Positions 1 to 31,151 of a stretch of DNA of 32,000 bases are shown here, piece after piece; position 1 is the stretch's first letter, and every line of letters begins with the position of its first letter. The DNA comes from Candidatus Saccharimonadota bacterium. GTDB taxonomy: Bacteria; Patescibacteriota; Microgenomatia; UBA1406; GWC2-37-13. A program made the translations under genes and the position numbers. The stretch spans positions 270,001-302,000 of the forward strand of contig CP065004.1 of NCBI GenBank assembly GCA_016700135.1. Reading direction: 5' to 3'. A model generated the notes under the pieces. The model was not told where the DNA came from. It did not search any database and worked only from the letters and a program-made list of their open reading frames with translations.

Positions 1-198
1 CAGGGTACTGATTTCATGTACTATGCAATCACCAACAATCCTGATGCGGTATCAATAGTAGGCGGCGGGGATACCCTGACTGCCATTTCAAAAAAAGAAT
101 ATCTCGACAAAATCACTCATATTTCAACCGGCGGCGGCGCGATGCTTGAGTTTATCGAAAAAGGAACACTGCCCGGGATTGAAGCCCTGAAAAAATAG
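1..198 (+). CDS. pgk: phosphoglycerate kinase, C-terminal fragment (gene begins upstream of the window)
   Basis: The frame is open from base 1. The tail ...[11 protein letters not shown]...[24 protein letters not shown] matches the conserved PGK C-terminal motif (STGGGA.LE..G..LPG). Stop is TAG at 196-198. Confidence 0.85.
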
Positions 199-287
199 CT
201 TGTAGGAAGTAGGCAGTAGGCCGTAAAAATGTACTCATTGCTACGGAATACAAGATCTCTACAAGCTACTACCTACCGCCTACAACC
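199..287 (+). repeat. palindromic heptad-repeat intergenic element, copy A (pgk-glpX spacer)
   Basis: The 5' arm is cttGTAGGaaGTAGGcaGTAGGcc and the 3' arm is gCTACtaCCTACcgCCTACaa. A central small hairpin is CCGTA...TACGG. The reverse complement aligns by hand with 31069-31151 at roughly 85% identity outside a variable central loop. Confidence 0.8.
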
Positions 288-297
288 TAACACAATT

Positions 298-1236
298 ATG
301 GACAGAAATCTTGCACTGGAATTTGTACGAGTTACGGAAGCGGCAGCAATTGAAGCCGCACGATGGATCGGAAAAGGAGATAAAAAAAGTGCTGATGGTG
401 CGGCAGTTGAAGCTATGAGATCACGGTTTCAGAATGTGGATTTTTCCGGAACCATTGTGATCGGAGAAGGAAAAAAAGATGAAGCCCCGGAGCTGTACGT
501 CGGAGAGAAAGTCGGAACCGGCAAAGGTCCCGAGATGGATATCGCCGTTGATCCTCTTGAATGTACCGACAGTGTGGCCTACGGCCGGTACAATGCATTG
601 ACTGTCATCGCAACGGGACCGAAAGGAAGCCTTCTGAGCGCTCCGGATACATACATGGATAAAATTGCTGTCGGACCGGCAGCAAAAGGAACGATACGCT
701 TGGATGCCTCAGTCGAAGAAAATATCCGTAACGTTGCCGAAGCACTTGAAAAGGAAGTCGGAGAAGTAACCGTCTCAATGCTTGACCGTCCGCGGAATGA
801 AGAAATCATGAACAAAGTGCGGGCAGCAGGAGCACGATTACGCCTGATCACCGACGGAGATCTTGCTGTTGCGATAGCAACCTGCATGGATGAAAGTCCG
901 ATCGATATGCTCCTCGGGTCAGGAGGAAGCGCCGAGTCCGTTCTTGCCGCTTCAGCTCTGAAAATTCTCGGAGGGGAAATCCAGGTGAGACTAATGCCCC
1001 GGAATGATGCAGACCGTGAAGAAATGACTAAGATGGGTCTTGATGACAAAACGATTTACACAACGGAAGATCTGGCAAAAGGAGACAACCTGACTTTTAC
1101 AGCAACCGGTGTCATTGAAGGCCCGCTTCTACCCGGAATTGTCTTTAATCCTCACTCTATCATCACACATTCAGTCGTGATGAGAAGTGTCTCAAAGACA
1201 GTCAGATATCTGACAACGTATCACCACGAGGACTAA
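298..1236 (+). CDS. glpX: fructose-1,6-bisphosphatase class II (GlpX)
   Basis: MDRNLALEFVRVTEAAA...GKGDK..AD.AAV.AM, GEGKKDEAP.LY.GE.VG, DIAVDPLE.T and LITDGD are typical of the GlpX family. The ORF opens at 229, but the homologous start is the ATG at 298. Confidence 0.9.
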   Translation: MDRNLALEFVRVTEAAAIEAARWIGKGDKKSADGAAVEAMRSRFQNVDFSGTIVIGEGKKDEAPELYVGEKVGTGKGPEMDIAVDPLECTDSVAYGRYNALTVIATGPKGSLLSAPDTYMDKIAVGPAAKGTIRLDASVEENIRNVAEALEKEVGEVTVSMLDRPRNEEIMNKVRAAGARLRLITDGDLAVAIATCMDESPIDMLLGSGGSAESVLAASALKILGGEIQVRLMPRNDADREEMTKMGLDDKTIYTTEDLAKGDNLTFTATGVIEGPLLPGIVFNPHSIITHSVVMRSVSKTVRYLTTYHHED

Positions 1237-2098: not shown

Positions 2099-2119
2099 CA
2101 CTTTAAATTCATAGCACAT

Positions 2120-2150
2120 AACCGAGGCAATACGTCTCGGTTGTGTTGCT
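2120..2150 (+). terminator. candidate intrinsic terminator after the ytxH-like gene
   Basis: Stem AACCGAG (2120-2126) pairs with CTCGGTT (2136-2142) around a 9-nt loop, followed by a T-rich GTGTTGCTT. The U-tract is weak. Confidence 0.35.
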
Positions 2151-2190
2151 TCCCTTACGAACTCTTTACATCGTTCTGAGAGAATACCCT

Positions 2191-2748
2191 ATGCAGGACT
2201 CCATGCAACCTTTTGACTGGTATCGTATATTTATCGGAGACTTATCTCTTCTTTTCACACTTGAAATAGTGTTCCGTACAGCATTTATGTATCTGTTTAC
2301 GGTACTCATGGCCAGGCTTATCGGCAAGCGGGGAATGGCTCAGATTACTCCTTTTGAATTTATTGTCGTGATTGTACTCGGCTCTGCTACCGGTGATCCC
2401 ATGCTGTACCCGAATGTTCCGCTCATTCACGGCATGGCTATTGTTACGACAATAGTTGTTCTGGAACAAGGGTATGCATATATTTCACAAAAAAGTGAAA
2501 AGATTGAGGAGTACGTAGAGAGCAGTCCGACGCTTATCATTAAAAAAGGACAAATTCTGAAGGGAACTCTTGAAGAAGTATCTTTTTCAAAAGAGAATCT
2601 TATGATGCAGCTTCGTCAACAGGGCATCACCGATCTCGGATATGTGAAAGAGGCCTACCTTGAACCTTCGGGAAAACTCAGTGTTTTTAAATATAAAAAA
2701 GCTCCGAAGCTCGTAAGAAAAACTAAACCGCAGCATACTAACGGATAA
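2191..2748 (+). CDS. DUF421 (YetF-like) membrane protein
   Basis: LIGKRGMAQITPFEFIVVIVLGSATGDP plus the C-terminal ...LRQQGITDLGYVKEAYLEPSGKLSV match the YetF N- and C-domain signatures. The start was chosen at the ATG at 2191 (MQDSMQPFDW). Confidence 0.8.
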   Translation: MQDSMQPFDWYRIFIGDLSLLFTLEIVFRTAFMYLFTVLMARLIGKRGMAQITPFEFIVVIVLGSATGDPMLYPNVPLIHGMAIVTTIVVLEQGYAYISQKSEKIEEYVESSPTLIIKKGQILKGTLEEVSFSKENLMMQLRQQGITDLGYVKEAYLEPSGKLSVFKYKKAPKLVRKTKPQHTNG

Positions 2749-3220: not shown

Positions 3221-3916
3221 ATGCCATCAGAAAAAAAAATTCATAAAAAACTTACCCAAAAACTTGCTGCCCGGAAATTACCCCCGTCAGACAAGCGCCT
3301 TTATGCAGAAACTTTCATTTACAGTTTGATTGTCTTAGCAGTCATTACGGCATATTATTTTGTGACACGACCGGAGTATGATATGCGGACTTTTAATCGC
3401 GGTATTGCCGACTTGTCATTTTTACTGATGGGTATTTCACTGATTTTGAGCAGTGTCTGTTATTTCTGGAACTTTGCTGATCATTTCATTATTTATCGTA
3501 AACATTTGGGACTCATCGGTTTCGGATATATGATCCTGCATATCGTTATTTCACTCTTCTACTCAGCATATCAGCCGTTTTTGTTGTATTACCTGAAAGA
3601 CAGTCAGATTGTTTCGTTTAGTGCAGCACTTACTGCAACCGGTATTTTTACTTTAATGGCGGTTATTTCCAATCGTTTTTCGATTCAGAAAATCGGGCCG
3701 CATCGGTGGAGACTTATCATGAGGGTAGGATATATCGCATATGTCATGGCACTTATTCACTTTGCCTTGCGCGGATGGCCGTACTGGATGTTATGGCTTT
3801 CAGGGAAAAGCACATCACTATTCCCCTCATTTGGGCTTCTCGTATTTGTCTTCGGGTGCATTGTTGTATTGATGAGGATCGTGCTTTTTGCCGCGACAAT
3901 CAATAAAAAGGAGTAA
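3221..3916 (+). CDS. polytopic membrane protein, ferric-reductase-like (MsrQ/YedZ-type) TM domain, putative
   Basis: About six TM helices. YRKHLGLIGFGYMILHIVISL and LIHFAL resemble the His-bearing helices of YedZ/MsrQ-type heme-b domains. The assignment rests on motifs only. Confidence 0.4.
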   Translation: MPSEKKIHKKLTQKLAARKLPPSDKRLYAETFIYSLIVLAVITAYYFVTRPEYDMRTFNRGIADLSFLLMGISLILSSVCYFWNFADHFIIYRKHLGLIGFGYMILHIVISLFYSAYQPFLLYYLKDSQIVSFSAALTATGIFTLMAVISNRFSIQKIGPHRWRLIMRVGYIAYVMALIHFALRGWPYWMLWLSGKSTSLFPSFGLLVFVFGCIVVLMRIVLFAATINKKE

Positions 3917-3919
3917 CGA

Positions 3920-6451
3920 TCATTCTTTTCCGGCTCCGATCACAGGCTTGATGACAGTCATAAGAAGAAGAACTACGAATGCGATGACCGCAAACATCCC
4001 GAACTGTGCCGGCGAAACGGAACTCACATAAAAGACCTTTTGCAAAGCAGGAATTGAGACAATGCTGAATTGTGTAACAAAAGGAAGTGCAAAGGCCAGG
4101 AAAAAGATCGGAGAAAGAAGTTTGCCGAAATGAGTGAAGAGGTTTCTTTTGGAAAGCCATACATCGGCCAGAATAAATGACTGGATCAGTGCAAGTACAC
4201 TGAATGCTGCCGTATTCGCAAGCATTCTGTTGACGTCATAGAACCAGAAGAATGTCACGAGAACAATGGTCGAAGCTACAGCGCCTACGGCAAAAATGTA
4301 CCACAGGTCGATTCCGTCAAGAAGCTTCAGTTTTTTCTCAGGTTTCCGTTTCATCACATGCGGATCACGCGGCGAGAAAGCAAGCGCCAAAGCCGGTATT
4401 CCGTCGGTCACCAGATTGATGTACAAAAACTGGATCGGATAAAAAATATGAGGAAATCCAAGCAACAGCCCGACTATAAGAGACAGTGCCTCAGTCACAT
4501 TGCAGGAAAGCAGATACGTGATCGCATTACGCAGATTTTTAATGATATTTCTTCCTGACTCGATCGCATCAACAATAGTTGCGAAGTTGTCATCGGTGAT
4601 GACCATATCTGCCGTTTCACGTGCGACATCGGTCCCGACTTTCCCCATTGCGACCCCGACATCGGCTTGTTTGAGCGCAATAGCATCGTTTACACCGTCT
4701 CCCGTGACGGCGACAATCTCACCGCACTTCTGATAAAGCGAAACGATCTGATGTTTATGAAACGGTGTAACACGTGCAAATACCCGCACTTCCGGAAGAA
4801 TTTTGAGCAGATCTTCATCTATCATATGATCAAGCTGCTTACCCGTCAGAACTCTGTGATCTTTTTCCATGAGGCCTGATTCCAGCGCGATTGCTGCTGC
4901 CGTTTTTTCATTGTCACCGGTGACCATAACGACCTGGATGCCCGCACTGTGAGCGCGCTTGATCGCATCAACAATTTCCGGACGCGGAGCATCATAGATT
5001 GCAGTCATGCCGATAAAAATCTGCTTTTCGATTTTTTCCCCGTTGCCTTCCTTGTATGAAAATGCCAGCACCCGTAACCCCTGTTCTGCCCAGGTTTCGA
5101 GTACCTCCGAAATCTCTTCCTTCATCTGTTTTGTGAGAGATACGATTGTATTATTTACAAGGATATGTTCACAAAGCTCCAGTATAGATTCCGGGGCCCC
5201 TTTGCTGAGAGTATAAGATTCATCTTTTTGCGAGACTTTCACCGTCATTCTTTTACTGACACTGTCAAACGGGATCTCTTCAACCAGCTTCCAGGTATCC
5301 CTGATTGCTTCAGGAATACTTTCCGATTCCTGCGCAAGATACAGGAGTGCACCTTCAGTCGGATCACCGACCATATGGAATCCCTCACCGTTTTCCTTCG
5401 GCGTCAGCTTTGCAGTTGAGCAAAGCACGGAATTGAGAATAAGTTTTCTAAAGGCCTCTGATTTTTTGTTCTGATGGGTGTCTTTCTGGATTTTTCCGTC
5501 AAAATAGAGCTCCTTGACACGCATTTTGTTTGTAGTGAGTGTCCCTGTTTTATCGGTCGCAATCAGAGTGATACTGCCCAATGCCTCAACCGCAGTCAAT
5601 TTACGGACAATTGCTTTGCGTTTTGCCATTTCTTTCACACCGATTGAAAGGGTGATAGTCATGACGGCCGGAAGCCCTTCCGGAACTACCGCGACCGCAA
5701 GTGAGATTGCCAAAAGGAATGCGGCAAAGTATGCCGATCCCTGGAATGTTGCAAGGAAAAATACGACAAGAGAAGCGACAATCCCGATGATACCGATGAC
5801 TTTTGTTACCGATTCCAGTTTGGTCTGAAGGGGACTTTTTGCTTCTTCGATATTTGCAAGCTTACTGGCAATTTTACCGAAATGCGTCTGCATGCCGGTG
5901 GCTGTGACCTCCGAATATCCTCTTCCCCTTGTCACAATAGTGCCCATAAACGCTTCGTCTTTTACTTTCTTCGAAACTCCCATCGATTCTCCTGTCAAAG
6001 CAGCTTCATTGACCTCCAGATTGACGCTCTCGCGGATGATGCCGTCGGCCGGGACTTTTACCCCTTCTTCGATAAAAATAAAGTCTCCGGGCACAAGCAA
6101 ATGACTGTCAATTTCGATCTCCCTACCGTCCCGTATCACGCGGATTTTCGTGACAGTCATTTCCTTCAATGCCGCCAGAGCTTCATTTGCCTTATATTCC
6201 TGATACACTCCGAAGAGTGCGTTGAGGATGACAATTGCTAAAATAAGTGCCCCGTCAATCGGTTCGCCGATAAAAAAGGAAAGGAGTGCGGCTACAAAAA
6301 GAAGTACGGTTAAAAAATTGTTGAGCTGCTGATACAGAATGACAAAGAAATTTTCCTTCTTTTGTTCTTCGATTACATTTTGACCGTGTATTTTCAGCAG
6401 TTCTTCAGCCCGTTCAGTTGTTAATCCGCGCATAGGAGATGACAATATCAA
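3920..6451 (-). CDS. cation-translocating P-type ATPase, P2 (Ca2+-ATPase-like)
   Basis: DKTGTLT phosphorylation site, PEGLPAV (TM4), TGDN, GDGVNDAIALKQADVGVAMG, and the N-terminal Cation_ATPase_N-like GLTTERAEELLKIHGQN. Length is 843 aa. Confidence 0.9.
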   Translation of the reverse strand: MILSSPMRGLTTERAEELLKIHGQNVIEEQKKENFFVILYQQLNNFLTVLLFVAALLSFFIGEPIDGALILAIVILNALFGVYQEYKANEALAALKEMTVTKIRVIRDGREIEIDSHLLVPGDFIFIEEGVKVPADGIIRESVNLEVNEAALTGESMGVSKKVKDEAFMGTIVTRGRGYSEVTATGMQTHFGKIASKLANIEEAKSPLQTKLESVTKVIGIIGIVASLVVFFLATFQGSAYFAAFLLAISLAVAVVPEGLPAVMTITLSIGVKEMAKRKAIVRKLTAVEALGSITLIATDKTGTLTTNKMRVKELYFDGKIQKDTHQNKKSEAFRKLILNSVLCSTAKLTPKENGEGFHMVGDPTEGALLYLAQESESIPEAIRDTWKLVEEIPFDSVSKRMTVKVSQKDESYTLSKGAPESILELCEHILVNNTIVSLTKQMKEEISEVLETWAEQGLRVLAFSYKEGNGEKIEKQIFIGMTAIYDAPRPEIVDAIKRAHSAGIQVVMVTGDNEKTAAAIALESGLMEKDHRVLTGKQLDHMIDEDLLKILPEVRVFARVTPFHKHQIVSLYQKCGEIVAVTGDGVNDAIALKQADVGVAMGKVGTDVARETADMVITDDNFATIVDAIESGRNIIKNLRNAITYLLSCNVTEALSLIVGLLLGFPHIFYPIQFLYINLVTDGIPALALAFSPRDPHVMKRKPEKKLKLLDGIDLWYIFAVGAVASTIVLVTFFWFYDVNRMLANTAAFSVLALIQSFILADVWLSKRNLFTHFGKLLSPIFFLAFALPFVTQFSIVSIPALQKVFYVSSVSPAQFGMFAVIAFVVLLLMTVIKPVIGAGKE

Positions 6452-6484: not shown

Positions 6485-7156
6485 TCATTTTATATACCCT
6501 TCTGCTTTCATACTGAGATATTTTTCACCGGTGACAATCACGTGATCTAGTATTTCAATGCCCAAAATATTTCCTGCTTCTGCAAGTTGAGCTGTAATTT
6601 TGATATCGGCATCAGATGGTGTGGGATCTCCTGACGGATGATTGTGTGCGACAATAATTGCTGCCGATTTATACGAAATTGCCGGCTCAAATACTTCCCT
6701 CGGGTGGACAAGGCTTGCACTCAGAGTACCGATTGAAATGATTTCCTTTCTCATAAGCTGATTCCGGGCGTTTAGCAGAAAGGCTACAAAATGCTCTTTT
6801 GCTTTTGACCGTATCTCTCTCAGCTGATCAGATACATCAGAAGGCGAGTTGATTGTCACTTCTTCATGCGATACTGCAGAATACAACCGTTTGCCGATTT
6901 CAAAAGCGGCAATAAGTGAGGCGGCTTTGCTTTGTCCCAATCCGTTAATACGCCCTAACTCACTCAAAGTCATTGAAGTGAGGCCCTCGATTTGTTTTCC
7001 GTCCAGTATTTCCCGTGATAAATCCAAAACGTTTTTCTTGGAGATACCAGTCCGAAGAAGCAGTGCGATTAACTCATAATCTTTGAGCTGAGCTGCTCCG
7101 AACCTTTTCAGTTTTTCCCTGGGAAGGATATGTGTCGGTACAAGCTTGTTATTCAT
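6485..7156 (-). CDS. radC: RadC-family JAMM protein (UPF0758)
   Basis: N-terminal HhH-like region (PREKL..FG...L.D.ELIALLLRTG) and C-terminal JAMM motif (VAHNHPSGDPTPSDADIKIT). Confidence 0.9.
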   Translation of the reverse strand: MNNKLVPTHILPREKLKRFGAAQLKDYELIALLLRTGISKKNVLDLSREILDGKQIEGLTSMTLSELGRINGLGQSKAASLIAAFEIGKRLYSAVSHEEVTINSPSDVSDQLREIRSKAKEHFVAFLLNARNQLMRKEIISIGTLSASLVHPREVFEPAISYKSAAIIVAHNHPSGDPTPSDADIKITAQLAEAGNILGIEILDHVIVTGEKYLSMKAEGYIK

Positions 7157-7182
7157 ATGTAATTACACACATATTATCATAT

Positions 7183-8346
7183 ATGTTTTCTTTTTTCCCT
7201 TGCGTGTATACTAAGAGTGTGAAAAACCGTATTCTTTCACTCTTATTGTTATTCTTTGTAGTTATTTCCCCACTTTTTTCGCCTGTTCAGGCACAGCGGA
7301 TCGCTGAATGTGATGCCTGCGGTTACTGCAACGGCAGAACACCTCCCGAGAACTGGGCATCATGTGCTGAGTGCTTGTATCCTGTGGAGTATGGTACGAA
7401 TCATGACCCAAAGGCCAATTTGACTCTTAAAATCAATGAAGATCGTGCAGCTGAGAATTTTAATAAGCCGCCCGTTCCCGCTTCCGGGAAATATTACACT
7501 CAACTCGGATGCCTGAATACGGGTCTGGGATCTTTTACGAACATCAGCTCCGCAGGGGGTGTCTTAAACTTTCTTCTTAATTATCTGATTTTTCCTGCTG
7601 CCGGAGTACTGGCATTTATGACCATTATTTACGGGGCATTTCTTTTGGTGACTGCTCAGGGTGACCAATTTAAAATCGCACAGGGTAAACGACTGGTTAC
7701 GAGTGCCGTCATCGGCCTCATTTTTACCTTCTCAGTCGTTCTGATCATCAATCTCATCGGCGCAAATATTCTGAAAATTCCCGGTCTTCAGGAAGATGAG
7801 GCATCCCAGGATTTCGCAAAAATCAAACTGGCAATCGAAAAGCTCAGCGATGCCACAGGACAGCTTCCCAATCATCTGGATCCGAATATCTGTGTCCACA
7901 ATCCTGAAGTCTTCATCGACAATGAGCGGGCCGGCCTTATTGCAACTGACGGGACTTTTCCCAATTGGAAAGGGCCATACCTTACGGATGCAGATGTGAC
8001 GGATCAATACGGTAAGGCATACTATCTCGACTCGGATTACAGATGTCGTCCTGATGTAAAAGGCTGTGAAACGGTGAATTTTGAATATAATAAATACGAT
8101 AGAATCACCGGAGGGAGAAGCAAGTTTGTGCGCGCCATTGTATCATTCGGAAAAGACAAAGAATCGAATTATTGTAATATCACGACTCAGTATATCTGTC
8201 GCGACAACAACCGGAGCTGTCAGCCTTTGAACAGTAATACCTGCCGGGATGACAGTAATCAGACATATACCTGCAACAATATTGAAGAACGCACCTGTCC
8301 CCGCACTGATGCAGACAATACGGTACTTGTATTGTGCGGATGGTAA
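7183..8346 (+). CDS. secreted Cys-rich surface protein with a central TrbC/VirB2-like (T4SS-pilin-type) membrane hairpin and a C-terminal GspG-like pseudopilin domain
   Basis: Signal peptide ILSLLLLFFVVISPLFSPVQA. Hairpin AGVLAFMTIIYGAFLLVTAQGDQFKIAQGKRLVTSAVIGLIFTFSVVLII. C-terminal region IKLAIEKLSDATGQLP...FPNWKGPYLTDADVTDQYGKAYYL matches the GspG globular pattern (W.GPYL...DPWG..Y.Y). Sixteen Cys lie outside the hairpin. The ORF opens at 7132 and overlaps the radC start. The ATG at 7183 or the GTG at 7219 is more plausible. Confidence 0.7.
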   Translation: MFSFFPCVYTKSVKNRILSLLLLFFVVISPLFSPVQAQRIAECDACGYCNGRTPPENWASCAECLYPVEYGTNHDPKANLTLKINEDRAAENFNKPPVPASGKYYTQLGCLNTGLGSFTNISSAGGVLNFLLNYLIFPAAGVLAFMTIIYGAFLLVTAQGDQFKIAQGKRLVTSAVIGLIFTFSVVLIINLIGANILKIPGLQEDEASQDFAKIKLAIEKLSDATGQLPNHLDPNICVHNPEVFIDNERAGLIATDGTFPNWKGPYLTDADVTDQYGKAYYLDSDYRCRPDVKGCETVNFEYNKYDRITGGRSKFVRAIVSFGKDKESNYCNITTQYICRDNNRSCQPLNSNTCRDDSNQTYTCNNIEERTCPRTDADNTVLVLCGW

Positions 8347-19150: not shown

Positions 19151-19170
19151 GAAGCGTGACTGTATGATAT

Positions 19171-19250
19171 CACCCACCGGCGGAGAAACAAATCTCCGTT
19201 TCTCCCTCGGTTTCTTCCGTTCCCGGATTTCAGGACGGAACGGGTGGGCA
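19171..19250 (+). other. structured non-coding segment immediately downstream of the regulator gene (nested and alternative hairpins)
   Basis: The outer pairing is CCCACC (19173-19178) with GGTGGG (19243-19248). Two competing hairpins are CGGAGA/TCTCCG (19181-19198) and GGAGAAAC/GTTTCTCC (19182-19205). A further hairpin is CCGTTCC/GGAACGG (19217-19243). Confidence 0.4.
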
Positions 19251-19507
19251 TCTCGGGTAATTTGCTCACTTTTTTGCTCTGCAAACAAAACCGTTTTCAC
19301 GGATGAGTTTTCGATGATATTCAACATAGAAGTATAAATAAATTGACAACTCTCATATACTAGATGCCGATTATGAACGGAATATCTGTGGTTGATCAAA
19401 ATGGTGTAAATCCCTTCTTACAAATCCCTTATTGCTCTCTTATACCGTTCCAATGCTTCAAATATATTATGAGATCATAAACTCATATCAGTTTAACTTT
19501 TATATCT

Positions 19508-19765
19508 ATGGAACTCATGTTATGGATACTCTTAGGAATAACCGCTGGATGGCTTGCATCAATCATTCTGGGCACGCACGCCACACAAGGTCTGGTAACC
19601 GATATTATTTTAGGGACAGTGGGTGCCGTCGTCGGAGGTTTACTGCTCAATCTGATCGGTCAACCGGGAATTATCGGTTTTAATATTTACAGTATTTCCG
19701 TGGCAACGCTCGGAGCTATCGTACTGATCTGGTTTGGAAGAATGATAAATTCACCGGCAAAATAA
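19508..19765 (+). CDS. GlsB/YeaQ/YmgE-family stress membrane protein, paralog 1
   Basis: LWILLGITAGWLASIILG......G...DIILGTVGAVVGG.L.......G....N.YSI.VATLGAIVLIW is the family pattern. Length is 85 aa. Confidence 0.88.
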   Translation: MELMLWILLGITAGWLASIILGTHATQGLVTDIILGTVGAVVGGLLLNLIGQPGIIGFNIYSISVATLGAIVLIWFGRMINSPAK

Positions 19766-19770
19766 TTATT

Positions 19771-19941
19771 ATGGAAAGACGATTACAAATTCATAACACG
19801 CAATATCGCGGCAAGCACGACGTACATCTGCTTTTTGTAATGCTGCTTACGGTGATGGGAGCACTCACATTCCTAACAGTGATAGTACCCGATGGGGATC
19901 TGGCAAGCGATCTGCCATATGAAATCTCCCGTACACCTTGA
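19771..19941 (+). CDS. candidate 56-aa single-pass membrane protein (below the ORF-track cutoff)
   Basis: Hand translation gives MERRLQIHNTQYRGKHDVHLLFVMLLTVMGALTFLTVIVPDGDLASDLPYEISRTP*. It starts 5 nt after the glsB stop and ends 1 nt before the convergent VIT1 stop. No homology evidence. Confidence 0.35.
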   Translation: MERRLQIHNTQYRGKHDVHLLFVMLLTVMGALTFLTVIVPDGDLASDLPYEISRTP

Positions 19942-19942
19942 T

Positions 19943-29338: not shown

Positions 29339-29357
29339 AAGAAAATTTCTATCGATT

Positions 29358-29463
29358 TAGGTGGCAAAGATATTGTTTTCTTGTGCGACTGGGAGGTGCG
29401 CAGTCCGCTAGGTTTCGGACGAGCAGGCCCATTAGAGCACAAAAAACAGTATCAAGCCGCCTA
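29358..29463 (+). ncRNA. 106-nt extended imperfect hairpin between convergent genes (candidate small structured RNA or REP-like element; family not identified)
   Basis: TAGGTGGC pairs with GCCGCCTA (29358-65 / 29456-63, one G-U). GATATTGTTTT pairs with AAAACAGTATC (29369-79 / 29443-53, one G-U). TTGTGC pairs with GCACAA (29381-86 / 29437-42), and GGG with CCC. The apical stem is GTCCG/CGGAC (29403-07 / 29416-20). Confidence 0.4.
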
Positions 29464-29475
29464 TGAAAACTCACC

Positions 29476-30141: not shown

Positions 30142-31056
30142 CTATTTCTTCACTGCATGACCGCCGAACTGACCTCTCAATGCCGAAACGACCTGTCCCG
30201 TATAGCTTGGTTTCTTTTCGGAATCCAGTCTGAACTGGTATGATTCAGCTATCACCGGAACTTCTTCACCCAAATCCTTTGCAGTCTCAACGGTCCACTT
30301 TCCCTCACCGCTGTGACTGATTGATCCCGAAATCGTTTTCAGATCTTCACCCCACTCCGTATACGCTTTATGGAGCCATCCGACAAGCCGTGATTCGATC
30401 ACGCTTCCCGTATTGTAAATCCGCGCGACTTCCGTCAGATCCAGATTGAACTGTGACTTTTTCATCACGTTAAAACCTTCTCCTATTGCCTGCATCATCC
30501 CGTATTCAATCCCGTTATGGACCATTTTGACAAAATGACCGGCACCGACACCCGCAAAATGAGCATACCCGTCTTTGATTGAGACATCTTTATACAACTC
30601 TTCCATTTTCCGAAATTGTTCTGCTGAACCTCCGACCATGAGACAGGCACCGTTTCGTGCGCCTGACGGGCCGCCCGAAACTCCGACATCAATATATTGA
30701 ATACCTTTTTCTGACAATTTTTCAGCGCGGGGAGCGTCTTCTTTATAAAATGAATTTCCTGCCTCAACAACCGTATCTCCTTTGTCCAAAAACTCCGAAA
30801 GACCCTGATTACCGAAGAGTGCTTCTTCAATCGGGGCGCCTGCAGGAAGCATGAGCCAGACAACACGGGGAGTTGACTCGAATTTTGAAATCATTTCCTG
30901 ATAACTATATGATGCTATCATGCCGAGTTGTGCGGCCTCGTCTACCTTTGCCGGAGTGCGGTTTGTCACAATCACCCTCCACCCTTTTTCATGCAATTGT
31001 TTTGCAATACCCATTCCCATTTTCCCCAGTCCGACTATTCCGATTTCTTTTTTCAT
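30142..31056 (-). CDS. gnd: 6-phosphogluconate dehydrogenase, short (YqeC/Gnd-like, decarboxylating) form
   Basis: IGIVGLGKMGMGIAKQL (Rossmann fold), GNSFY.D, YIDVGVSGG..GA..G.CLMVGG and GAGHFVKMVHNGIEYGMMQAIGEGF are present. Confidence 0.88.
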   Translation of the reverse strand: MKKEIGIVGLGKMGMGIAKQLHEKGWRVIVTNRTPAKVDEAAQLGMIASYSYQEMISKFESTPRVVWLMLPAGAPIEEALFGNQGLSEFLDKGDTVVEAGNSFYKEDAPRAEKLSEKGIQYIDVGVSGGPSGARNGACLMVGGSAEQFRKMEELYKDVSIKDGYAHFAGVGAGHFVKMVHNGIEYGMMQAIGEGFNVMKKSQFNLDLTEVARIYNTGSVIESRLVGWLHKAYTEWGEDLKTISGSISHSGEGKWTVETAKDLGEEVPVIAESYQFRLDSEKKPSYTGQVVSALRGQFGGHAVKK

Positions 31057-31068
31057 AATGAAACACGA

Positions 31069-31151
31069 TGTAGGCGGTAGGTGACAGCTTGCAGCAATCT
31101 TATATTCCGTAAATAGATGGCGTTTACAGCCTACTGCCTACTCACTACAAG
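31069..31151 (-). repeat. palindromic heptad-repeat intergenic element, copy B (zwf-gnd spacer)
   Basis: tGTAGGcgGTAGGtg...cagCCTACtgCCTACtcaCTACaag. Read on the minus strand it is collinear with copy A (199-287). The zwf stop codon (31145-31147) lies inside its 5' arm. Confidence 0.8.

Follow-up and report, generated by a model that had tools for sequence, protein, structure and literature searches.

Two heptad-repeat palindromes between sugar-phosphate genes of a candidate phyla radiation bacterium share their arms with stop-codon-adjacent palindromes in other phyla

Repetitive extragenic palindromes (REPs) that adjoin stop codons affect mRNA stability and the translation of the upstream gene. 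The Correia/NEMIS elements of Neisseria and the enterobacterial repetitive intergenic consensus (ERIC) elements are small, co-transcribed MITEs (miniature transposable elements with inverted repeats) that form hairpins in mRNA, and elements of this kind can be RNase III or stability signals. In the hut mRNA of Bacillus, the HutP antiterminator site takes the form (UAG-N4)x3 and overlaps a terminator. Among REPs and bacterial interspersed mosaic elements (BIMEs), GTAG-tagged palindromes are found together with REP-associated tyrosine transposases (RAYTs; PMC3733652, PMC2817692). Intergenic heptanucleotide arrays have been described as the short tandemly repeated repetitive (STRR) sequences of cyanobacteria, as TAACTGA in Beggiatoaceae, as GGGAATC in Xanthomonas and as the heptads of Geobacter (PMC4679880, PMC4692102, PMC2700814). 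Here we analyse a palindrome of about 85 nt with arms made of heptads, which lies twice in a 32,000-nt stretch of genome (contig CP065004.1, positions 270,001 to 302,000; hereafter the window), once between pgk and glpX (copy A) and once between zwf and gnd (copy B). The gnd and glpX products of the window are identical to QQS44296.1 and QQS44263.1, respectively, of Candidatus Roizmanbacteria, which belong to the candidate phyla radiation (CPR).

The two copies are a paralogous pair in a fixed stop-to-start geometry, their arms are those of a class of palindromes found in many phyla, and among relatives there is rapid concerted replacement at these sites. With moderate confidence, we read them as intercistronic palindromes of a REP-like or simple-sequence-repeat-like kind that form a generic mRNA hairpin, and not as a sequence-specific riboregulator of carbohydrate genes. 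An earlier note on this DNA had placed the same element in both spacers and estimated about 85% identity outside the central loop. BLAST aligns two segments, one of 30 nt at 90% and one of 43 nt at 84% identity, which makes 63/73 or 86% outside the loop, and the mean column identity in a MAFFT alignment, flanks included, is 82%. At 82-86% identity, neither was recently derived from the other. Their parts are as follows.

199-286, plus strand: copy A, heptad-repeat palindrome (CTTGTAGG ... CCTACAAC), 105.5 bits with the covariance model
202-220, plus strand: 5′ arm of copy A, GTAGGaaGTAGGcaGTAGG, with GTAGG at 202-206, 209-213 and 216-220
221-246, plus strand: inner hairpin of copy A, CCGTA (221-225) with TACGG (242-246), loop variable, from folding and alignment
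247-258, plus strand: conserved unpaired linker of copy A, AATACAAGATCT, whose counterpart in copy B is AATATAAGATTG, from the alignments
259-267, plus strand: H1 segment of copy A, CTACAAGCT, a perfect complement of AGCTTGTAG at 197-205
266-283, plus strand: 3′ arm of copy A, CTACtaCCTACcgCCTAC, with CTAC at 266-269 and CCTAC at 272-276 and 279-283
31069-31151, minus strand: copy B, palindrome (CTTGTAGtgaGTAGGcaGTAGG ... CCTACcgCCTACA), 113.9 bits with the covariance model
31107-31129, minus strand: inner hairpin of copy B, CTGTAAA (31129-31123) with TTTACGG (31113-31107), loop variable, from folding and alignment
31087-31094, minus strand: H1 segment of copy B, CTGCAAGC, complementary to GCTTGTAG at 31152-31145
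31070-31081, minus strand: 3′ arm of copy B, CCTACcgCCTAC, with CCTAC at 31081-31077 and 31074-31070

Copy A opens with CTTGTAG at 199-205, and CTACAAG at 259-265 precedes the run CTAC-ta-CCTAC-cg-CCTAC in its second half. In copy B, CTTGTAG stands at 31151-31145 and holds the stop codon TAG of zwf. Three GTAGGNN heptads in the 5′ arm and complementary NNCCTAC heptads in the 3′ arm had been attributed to the element; copy A has three, whereas in copy B only two heptads of each arm are perfect (GTAGG at 31141-31137 and 31134-31130), the first heptad being degenerate (GTAGT). The further observation that the inner stem is kept while the loop differs was borne out by the alignment. The 5′ arm has a TAG every 7 nt, and three heptads therefore place a stop codon in all three frames. 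These TAGs (complete in three registers, with TA in the fourth) and the C-T-A of the 3′ arm are invariant columns with a period of 7 nt, even when a variant built on ATAG, described below, is included. Both copies have terminal inverted repeats (TTGTAGG ... CCTACAA in copy A, GTAGGC ... GCCTAC in copy B), and a target-site duplication was found at neither, the flanks being TAGC ... CCTAA (copy A) and ATCG ... TCGTG (copy B).

The copies lie on opposite strands (A on plus, B on minus), each in the sense orientation relative to its own operon, as the earlier note had it. According to Pfam, copy A is flanked by PGK and the GlpX fructose-1,6-bisphosphatase, and copy B by G6PD and 6PGD. Each copy begins at the upstream stop codon or at most 1 nt from it, and the next ATG follows 14 nt (copy A) or 13 nt (copy B) after the last CCTAC; for gnd this is the ATG at 31056 on the minus strand.

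196-198, plus strand: stop codon TAG of pgk, 0 nt before copy A, from the frame and the Pfam PGK match
298-1236, plus strand: glpX, class II fructose-1,6-bisphosphatase (Pfam PF03320, E = 1.4e-127)
31145-31147, minus strand: stop codon TAG of zwf, inside the first heptad of copy B, from the frame of the G6PD_C match
30142-31056, minus strand: gnd, decarboxylating 6-phosphogluconate dehydrogenase (Pfam PF03446 and PF00393)

A public gene call for glpX, P0127, is 335 rather than 312 amino acids long and uses an ATG at 229, in the loop of the inner hairpin of copy A. Its 23 extra residues (MYSLLRNTRSLQATTYRLQPNTI; window 229-297) are a translation of the 3′ arm of copy A, and the 335-residue start is probably an annotation artefact. 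Promoter and terminator scans found no promoter-like or terminator-like site inside either copy, and the tails of the two elements (AACCUAACAC and AUCGUGUUUC) lack the GC-rich stem and U tract of an intrinsic terminator. Shine-Dalgarno motifs are apparently absent upstream of genes in this genome. Pfam and a scan of the open reading frames (ORFs) found no sugar-phosphate genes in the window beyond the pgk-glpX and zwf-gnd pairs, and no transposase gene was found among the proteins encoded there.

The element occupies pgk-glpX and zwf-gnd only, among 31 spacers in the window of which 17 are co-directional. The longest of these spacers is a 792-nt gap without a long ORF (19151-19942), between a response-regulator gene and a VIT1 gene. 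The two halves of the element are the two longest inverted repeats of the whole window, and the heptad pattern has 13 matches there, compared with 3.06 expected, a number attained by 0/100 shuffles. Neither nhmmer nor the covariance model with its filters off found a third copy in the window, and pattern searches, a repeat finder and nhmmer on 1.87 Mb added no members to the known ones. With the covariance model, the counts are 2 copies in the 32-kb window, 1 orthologous copy in 21 kb of the related locus L211 and 0 in about 310 kb of other CPR loci. The earlier note could match the element to no family, and at the gathering threshold Rfam 15 matches neither copy, its sole match in the window being a tRNA; an E-value search around the copies gave sub-threshold matches only, mainly to models of miRNA-precursor hairpins, none of which exceeds 27.6 bits where the threshold is 53.5.

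As RNA, copy A folds in the sense orientation with -31.4 kcal/mol (z = -4.6) and copy B with -27.1 kcal/mol (z = -1.9). On an alignment of six sequences we tested a fold of four helices, namely h2:H4, h3:H3, the inner hairpin and a crossing helix h1:H1 (GCTTGTAG with CTACAAGC). In this fold 96.2% of the cells are paired and 7 pairs are changed on both sides, and no shuffle attains these values. For the H1 pairing of copy A, which would be an alternative or crossing helix, 100% of the cells are paired across the 6 sequences, with 2 double changes. A plain nested hairpin of three tiers was rejected as the common fold, since it pairs 88% of the cells as compared to 96% for two tiers plus the crossing helix. 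One compensatory change lies outside the heptad core, a G-C to A-U exchange in L211 in the H1 pairing of copy B; the remaining ones are concerted heptad substitutions that keep every register at once. This covariation is no proof of RNA function, because slippage and quasi-palindrome correction at the level of DNA can yield the same pattern.

Only a few kcal/mol separate the pairing registers, and different copies prefer different ones. The heptad register had been thought to allow either slipped pairings or a pseudoknot. Slipped and crossing pairings are indeed possible, but we do not count the crossing helix as a true pseudoknot, for which connecting loops of 3 and 5 nt seem insufficient. 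Given these short loops and the near-equal registers, we take the crossing pairings to be alternative, slipping conformations.

In relatives of the source organism, whose loci carry L numbers here, the site between zwf and gnd looks as follows.

L208, same species, 98.3% nucleotide identity: copy B, 99% identical
L005/L211, four-fold sites 0.38-0.43 identical, i.e., saturated: copy B, 87-89% identical
L126, a closer relative, four-fold identity 0.75: an unrelated spacer of 127 nt
L121, gnd with 91% amino acid identity: element absent, spacer of 23 nt
L123, gnd with 88% amino acid identity: element absent
L124, gnd with 81% amino acid identity: element absent, a different short hairpin
L209, gnd with 86% amino acid identity: element absent, an unrelated 9-bp hairpin

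Copy B is thus missing from five related zwf-gnd spacers (L126, L121, L123, L124 and L209). The other intergenic spacers of these genomes are mostly about 65-91% identical, well above the shuffled baseline, the exceptions near the baseline being cyclase-SOD in L123 and Transgly-hyp423 in L124. The zwf-gnd spacer is at the shuffled baseline in L121, L123 and L124, and since most spacers stay conserved, the site appears to be a hot spot of turnover. In L211, copy B is no more conserved than other spacers. An argument from copy B as an island of conservation is therefore weakened, because most other spacers are about 70-90% conserved as well. In general, conservation in this clade is far higher for intergenic DNA than at synonymous sites; the non-coding convergent spacer between the cyclase and SOD genes (window 29339-29475, 137 nt) is 91% identical to that of L211, with four-fold sites at about 0.4. 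The L005/L211 contig (CAYMVU010000004.1, GCA_964394215.1), from a metagenome-assembled genome (MAG) labelled "uncultured Gammaproteobacteria", is gene-for-gene syntenic with the window and has about 81% nucleotide identity to it; the label is probably wrong. L126 also holds two copies of a palindrome of 44 nt (AAAAGATCACAGCATACCACCGCGGTCATTGACTGTGATCTTTT), at a distance of 155 nt, in the stretch that separates the genes for a SpoU methylase and TruB (3909-4107).

Replacement is also seen between pgk and glpX. The same-species strain L207, at 94-97% nucleotide identity, has a palindrome of 106 nt of the ATAG type instead of copy A, and L125, a contig of another MAG whose GlpX has 98.7% amino acid identity to that of the window, has an ATAG-type palindrome as in L207. 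This palindrome is built from CTTATAG/CTGATAG and CTATAAG/CTATCAG/CTATAAC and is in register with copy A, such that GTAG has become ATAG in the 5′ heptads h1, h3 and h4, and CTAC has become CTAT in the 3′ heptads H1, H3 and H4, an exchange of G:C for A:T. Three further loci differ again, two of them with tandem-repeat hairpins of other kinds.

L210: another heptad palindrome, GTAACG/CGTTACA
L128: a hairpin with a duplicated 3′ partner
L127: no hairpin

The palindromes of L210 and L128 were not detected as homologues by nhmmer or the covariance model. As far as these sequences tell, replacement from one relative to the next is too rapid for the element to give the impression of a regulator dedicated to sugar genes. 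Elsewhere in L207, about 640 nt of the window (2099-2739, with a YetF/DUF421 ORF at 2143-2748) are missing, and the junctions of this strain-specific insertion or deletion are window 2098/2740 and L207 7304/7358.

Arms identical to those of the two copies, GTAGGCAGTAGGC and CCTACCGCCTAC, recur in a wider class. A scan with the pattern GTAGGCAGTAGGC-N20-50-CCTACCGCCTAC, using one genome per species, gave at least 120 loci, whereas about 0.03 were expected by chance. The matches listed include MAGs of Acidobacteriota, Planctomycetota and Chloroflexota, isolates of Mesorhizobium, Neolewinella antarctica (Bacteroidota), Cytophagales, one Bifidobacteriaceae MAG and one Dialister MAG, and among them are several genomes with many loci each. 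These loci are hairpins, with arms that are runs of the heptads GTAGGCR and YGCCTAC and a loop that is variable, i.e., of the form (GTAGGCR)n-loop-(YGCCTAC)n. The heptad count differs at orthologous loci (L015 versus L016, L044 versus L103), and arrays with a period of 7 number 150 at the wider-class loci, compared with 30, 24 and 24 for periods of 5, 8 and 9, respectively. Mismatches of the A.C type (sense) and of the G.U type (antisense), counted relative to transcription, stand at 25 versus 25, showing no strand bias.

The wider class shares the stop-to-start geometry of the window copies. Among the 102 listed elements with callable flanks, 50 lie between co-directional, 12 between convergent and 5 between divergent genes. 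In 50/50 of the co-directional cases listed, the upstream stop lies -18 to +19 nt from the start of the element, in 29/50 it lies inside the heptads, and the distance from the end of the element to the next possible start has a median of 9 nt. A literature search found no published account with these heptad strings in such a context, and a text search of the 2013 survey of GTAG/CGTC REPs (PMC3733652) gives neither 'GTAGG' nor 'heptam'. The GTAGGCR palindromes between genes are apparently a widespread, undescribed class.

Several GTAGGCR-bearing loci (L010, L015, L044, L097, L098, L068, L049 and L007) also hold hairpins with arms of other heptads, among them GTGATGA, GTGCAAA, GGGTTCA, GTGGTCA and GCGATTT. 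Because such different units form hairpins of this kind, heptad-armed palindromes seem to be general in those genomes. A stop codon in every heptad was rejected as a general rule, for it fits the GTAGG, ATAG and GTAACG units and fails for several others, e.g., GTGCAAA and GCGATTT. Viral contigs of IMG/VR contain a GTAGGCR palindrome in two places (L213, 2444-2506; L214, 4762-4829), with 0 matches for each of two permuted controls, numbers that are too small to use. In a Phycisphaerales MAG (L070), a frameshifted ORF pair at 7047-7722 looks similar to a Y1 transposase of the IS200/RAYT kind (YHVLNRG ... YVERNPLRAGLV), with no Pfam confirmation at E <= 0.01; a GTAGGCR palindrome lies some 5 kb away.

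Of the systems known, REPs and BIMEs resemble the present element in that they are imperfect palindromes headed by GT(A/G)G, as here GTAG opens each 5′ heptad and CTAC closes each 3′ heptad. They likewise occupy non-coding stretches within operons or between genes that converge, seldom between divergent ones; they are co-transcribed, as the present element would be, and there are many copies per genome, which for the present element holds for the wider class. However, the arms here are tandem heptads with a GTAG in each, whereas a REP has one GTAG and a unique stem. A REP unit is a single stem of about 20-40 nt, in contrast to about 85 nt with two to three heptads per arm and an interior of about 45 nt that holds a conserved hairpin. 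REPs occur in tens to hundreds of copies per genome, to be compared with the counts of two, one and none given above for the window, L211 and the other CPR loci. The cognate Y1 (RAYT) transposase gene of REPs is typically flanked by them; no RAYT was found in the window, and a tblastn match to RayT in other loci was marginal and not flanked by palindromes. The STRR-type arrays share with the element the intergenic 7-nt tandem repeats, their frequent position next to start or stop codons, the variable copy number between relatives, an occasional inverted arrangement and the proposed origin by slippage. Counted as at least two tandem 7-nt units of variable number, copy A has three units and copy B two plus a degenerate one. 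Unlike these arrays, the heptads here form obligate inverted pairs that make a hairpin, and the unit GTAGGCR, which is absent from the literature found, recurs across several phyla.

Correia/NEMIS and ERIC elements are similar in their length of about 100 nt, their inverted-repeat ends, their position between the genes of an operon and their folding in the transcript, but differ from the present copies, which have no target-site duplication and arms built from heptads. The likeness to the HutP site lies in three to four UAG triplets at an exact 7-nt spacing on the transcribed strand, invariant in the GTAGG and ATAG variants. The partner arm, however, reads CUA, such that the UAGs would be base-paired, unlike those of the HutP site; there is no terminator in the copies and no hutP-like gene in the window, and the wider class occurs in phyla that are not known for HutP.

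If the copies are indeed REP-like intercistronic hairpins, the palindrome would be transcribed within the operon mRNA and fold into a stable stem-loop able to slip between registers. Such a stem-loop might act generically, protecting or marking the 3′ end of the upstream segment, because its duplex of about 20 bp resembles a hairpin that is an RNase III target or a barrier to exonucleases. It may also limit independent ribosome loading downstream, as a ribosome terminating at the stop codon would have to melt the 5′ arm. With TAG every 7 nt and hence stops in every frame, an insertion at the end of a gene would be harmless. In evolution, heptad slippage and template switching or conversion from arm to arm would alter all heptads and both arms together, and conversion of this kind may occasionally swap one palindrome for another at the same site. 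Among the roles suggested in the earlier note, those of a REP- or MITE-like repeat and of an intercistronic processing or stability element fit best with arms shared with a many-copy class and with stop codons adjoining in 50/50 co-directional cases, whereas the suggestion of a cis-regulator of carbohydrate genes is weakened.

Several observations weigh against this reading. In all the DNA examined, the subfamily to which the two copies belong is carried by sugar-phosphate spacers alone, and the chance that both copies fall into the two sugar-phosphate spacers out of 31 is about 1/465, for a category that was set post hoc. The antisense strand folds as well as the sense strand or better (-45.6 versus -31.4 kcal/mol for copy A). 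High copy number, the hallmark of REPs, is not apparent from the counts in the window, L211 and the other CPR loci. The arms shared with the wider class could be convergent and need not reflect common descent; that class has no conserved interior. Finally, the 87-89% identity of copy B across saturated four-fold sites points to a constraint on sequence that goes beyond pairing.

Some of these points speak for a dedicated cis-regulatory RNA common to the operons of glycolysis/gluconeogenesis (pgk-glpX) and of the oxidative pentose-phosphate pathway (zwf-gnd). The UAG-N4 repeats of the 5′ arm would be recognised in the manner of HutP by a factor acting in trans, which would switch the element between the h1:H1 and the h2/h3:H3/H4 pairings and thereby set the expression of the downstream gene. 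Every locus found of the subfamily lies in one of these two spacers, copy B has stayed conserved across a split at which synonymous sites are saturated, TAG and C-T-A are invariant every 7 nt even in the ATAG variant, and two mutually exclusive helices are kept, with one compensatory replacement of G-C by A-U beyond the heptad core. We nevertheless consider such a regulator unlikely, because copy B is missing in the closer relative L126 and four others, four different palindromes occupy pgk-glpX among close relatives, and palindromes with identical arms lie between unrelated genes in many phyla. Moreover, the window encodes no candidate for a protein that would bind the element, the 3′ arm bears CUA instead of a second set of UAGs, both copies lack a terminator that could be antagonised, and the likeness to the HutP site is one of spacing. 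A DNA operator, for instance for a central-carbon regulator binding repeated GTAGG half-sites, would account for direct and inverted 5-mer repeats at fixed spacing next to central-carbon genes, but is hardly credible for sequences that lie inside operons right after stop codons and not at promoters, have arms 60-70 bp apart, are replaced wholesale in close relatives and recur in the wider class between unrelated genes.

The patchy distribution, with presence in a distant relative and absence in a closer one, and the exchange of one palindrome for another within a species would also be expected of a non-autonomous mobile element of the MITE or REP type, moved by a transposase that recognises GTAG (e.g., of the RAYT/IS200-like Y1 kind), inserted preferentially at gene ends and devoid of a host function. 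The GTAG heads, the terminal inverted repeats (TTGTAGG/CCTACAA) and the recurrence of the same arm unit in many phyla, whose genomes hold it in many copies, agree with this, as do the stops in all six frames, which would make insertion at a gene end tolerable, and the upstream stop lying inside the element in 29/50 wider-class cases. Yet a target-site duplication is missing at both copies, no transposase is encoded in the window, and a tblastn search with E. coli RayT on 1.9 Mb of loci gave one marginal match (E = 0.085) that has no Pfam support and is not flanked by palindromes; only two or three loci of the subfamily were found, and A and B at 82-86% were not recently copied from one another, all of which makes a mobile element unlikely. 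Alternatively, the palindromes might be a neutral by-product of heptanucleotide slippage and quasi-palindrome template switching in permissive gaps, with no selected role. Heptamer repeats are over-represented in bacterial intergenic DNA (PMC4692102, PMC4679880), the number of heptads varies between orthologous loci, the same genomes hold inverted pairs of many other heptad units, the ATAG variant has changed in all heptads and both arms together, and the balance of 25 A.C to 25 G.U mismatches betrays no transcription strand bias. However, pure neutrality is very unlikely in view of the conservation of copy B across the deep split (87-89%, unpaired linker included), the recurrence of one particular heptad across phyla and the tight placement at stop codons.

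A bolder reading would make the GTAGGCR palindromes an undescribed, stop-codon-anchored class that shares a selected mechanism across phyla, e.g., a conserved factor or RNase reading UAG/GUAGG at 7-nt spacing, or a device for translational coupling or processing, with the CPR copies as a specialised derivative coordinating two central-carbon operons via alternative pairings; taken as a whole, this is possible, if unlikely.

The palindromes also bear on annotation and on the search for structured RNAs. A glpX start has been called inside the element, and many genes of the wider class end on the TAG of a heptad. Concerted change of heptads and arms gives abundant "compensatory" substitutions of a kind that processes at the DNA level can produce without RNA function, which calls for caution in interpreting covariation. 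In the CPR genome studied here, the element marks two operons that carry nearly all of the central carbon flux of a minimal genome. Should the wider class prove real and functional, it would be a widespread organiser of expression inside operons that has apparently gone unrecognised so far, spanning Acidobacteriota, Planctomycetota, Chloroflexota, some Proteobacteria, Bacteroidota and at least one CPR lineage.

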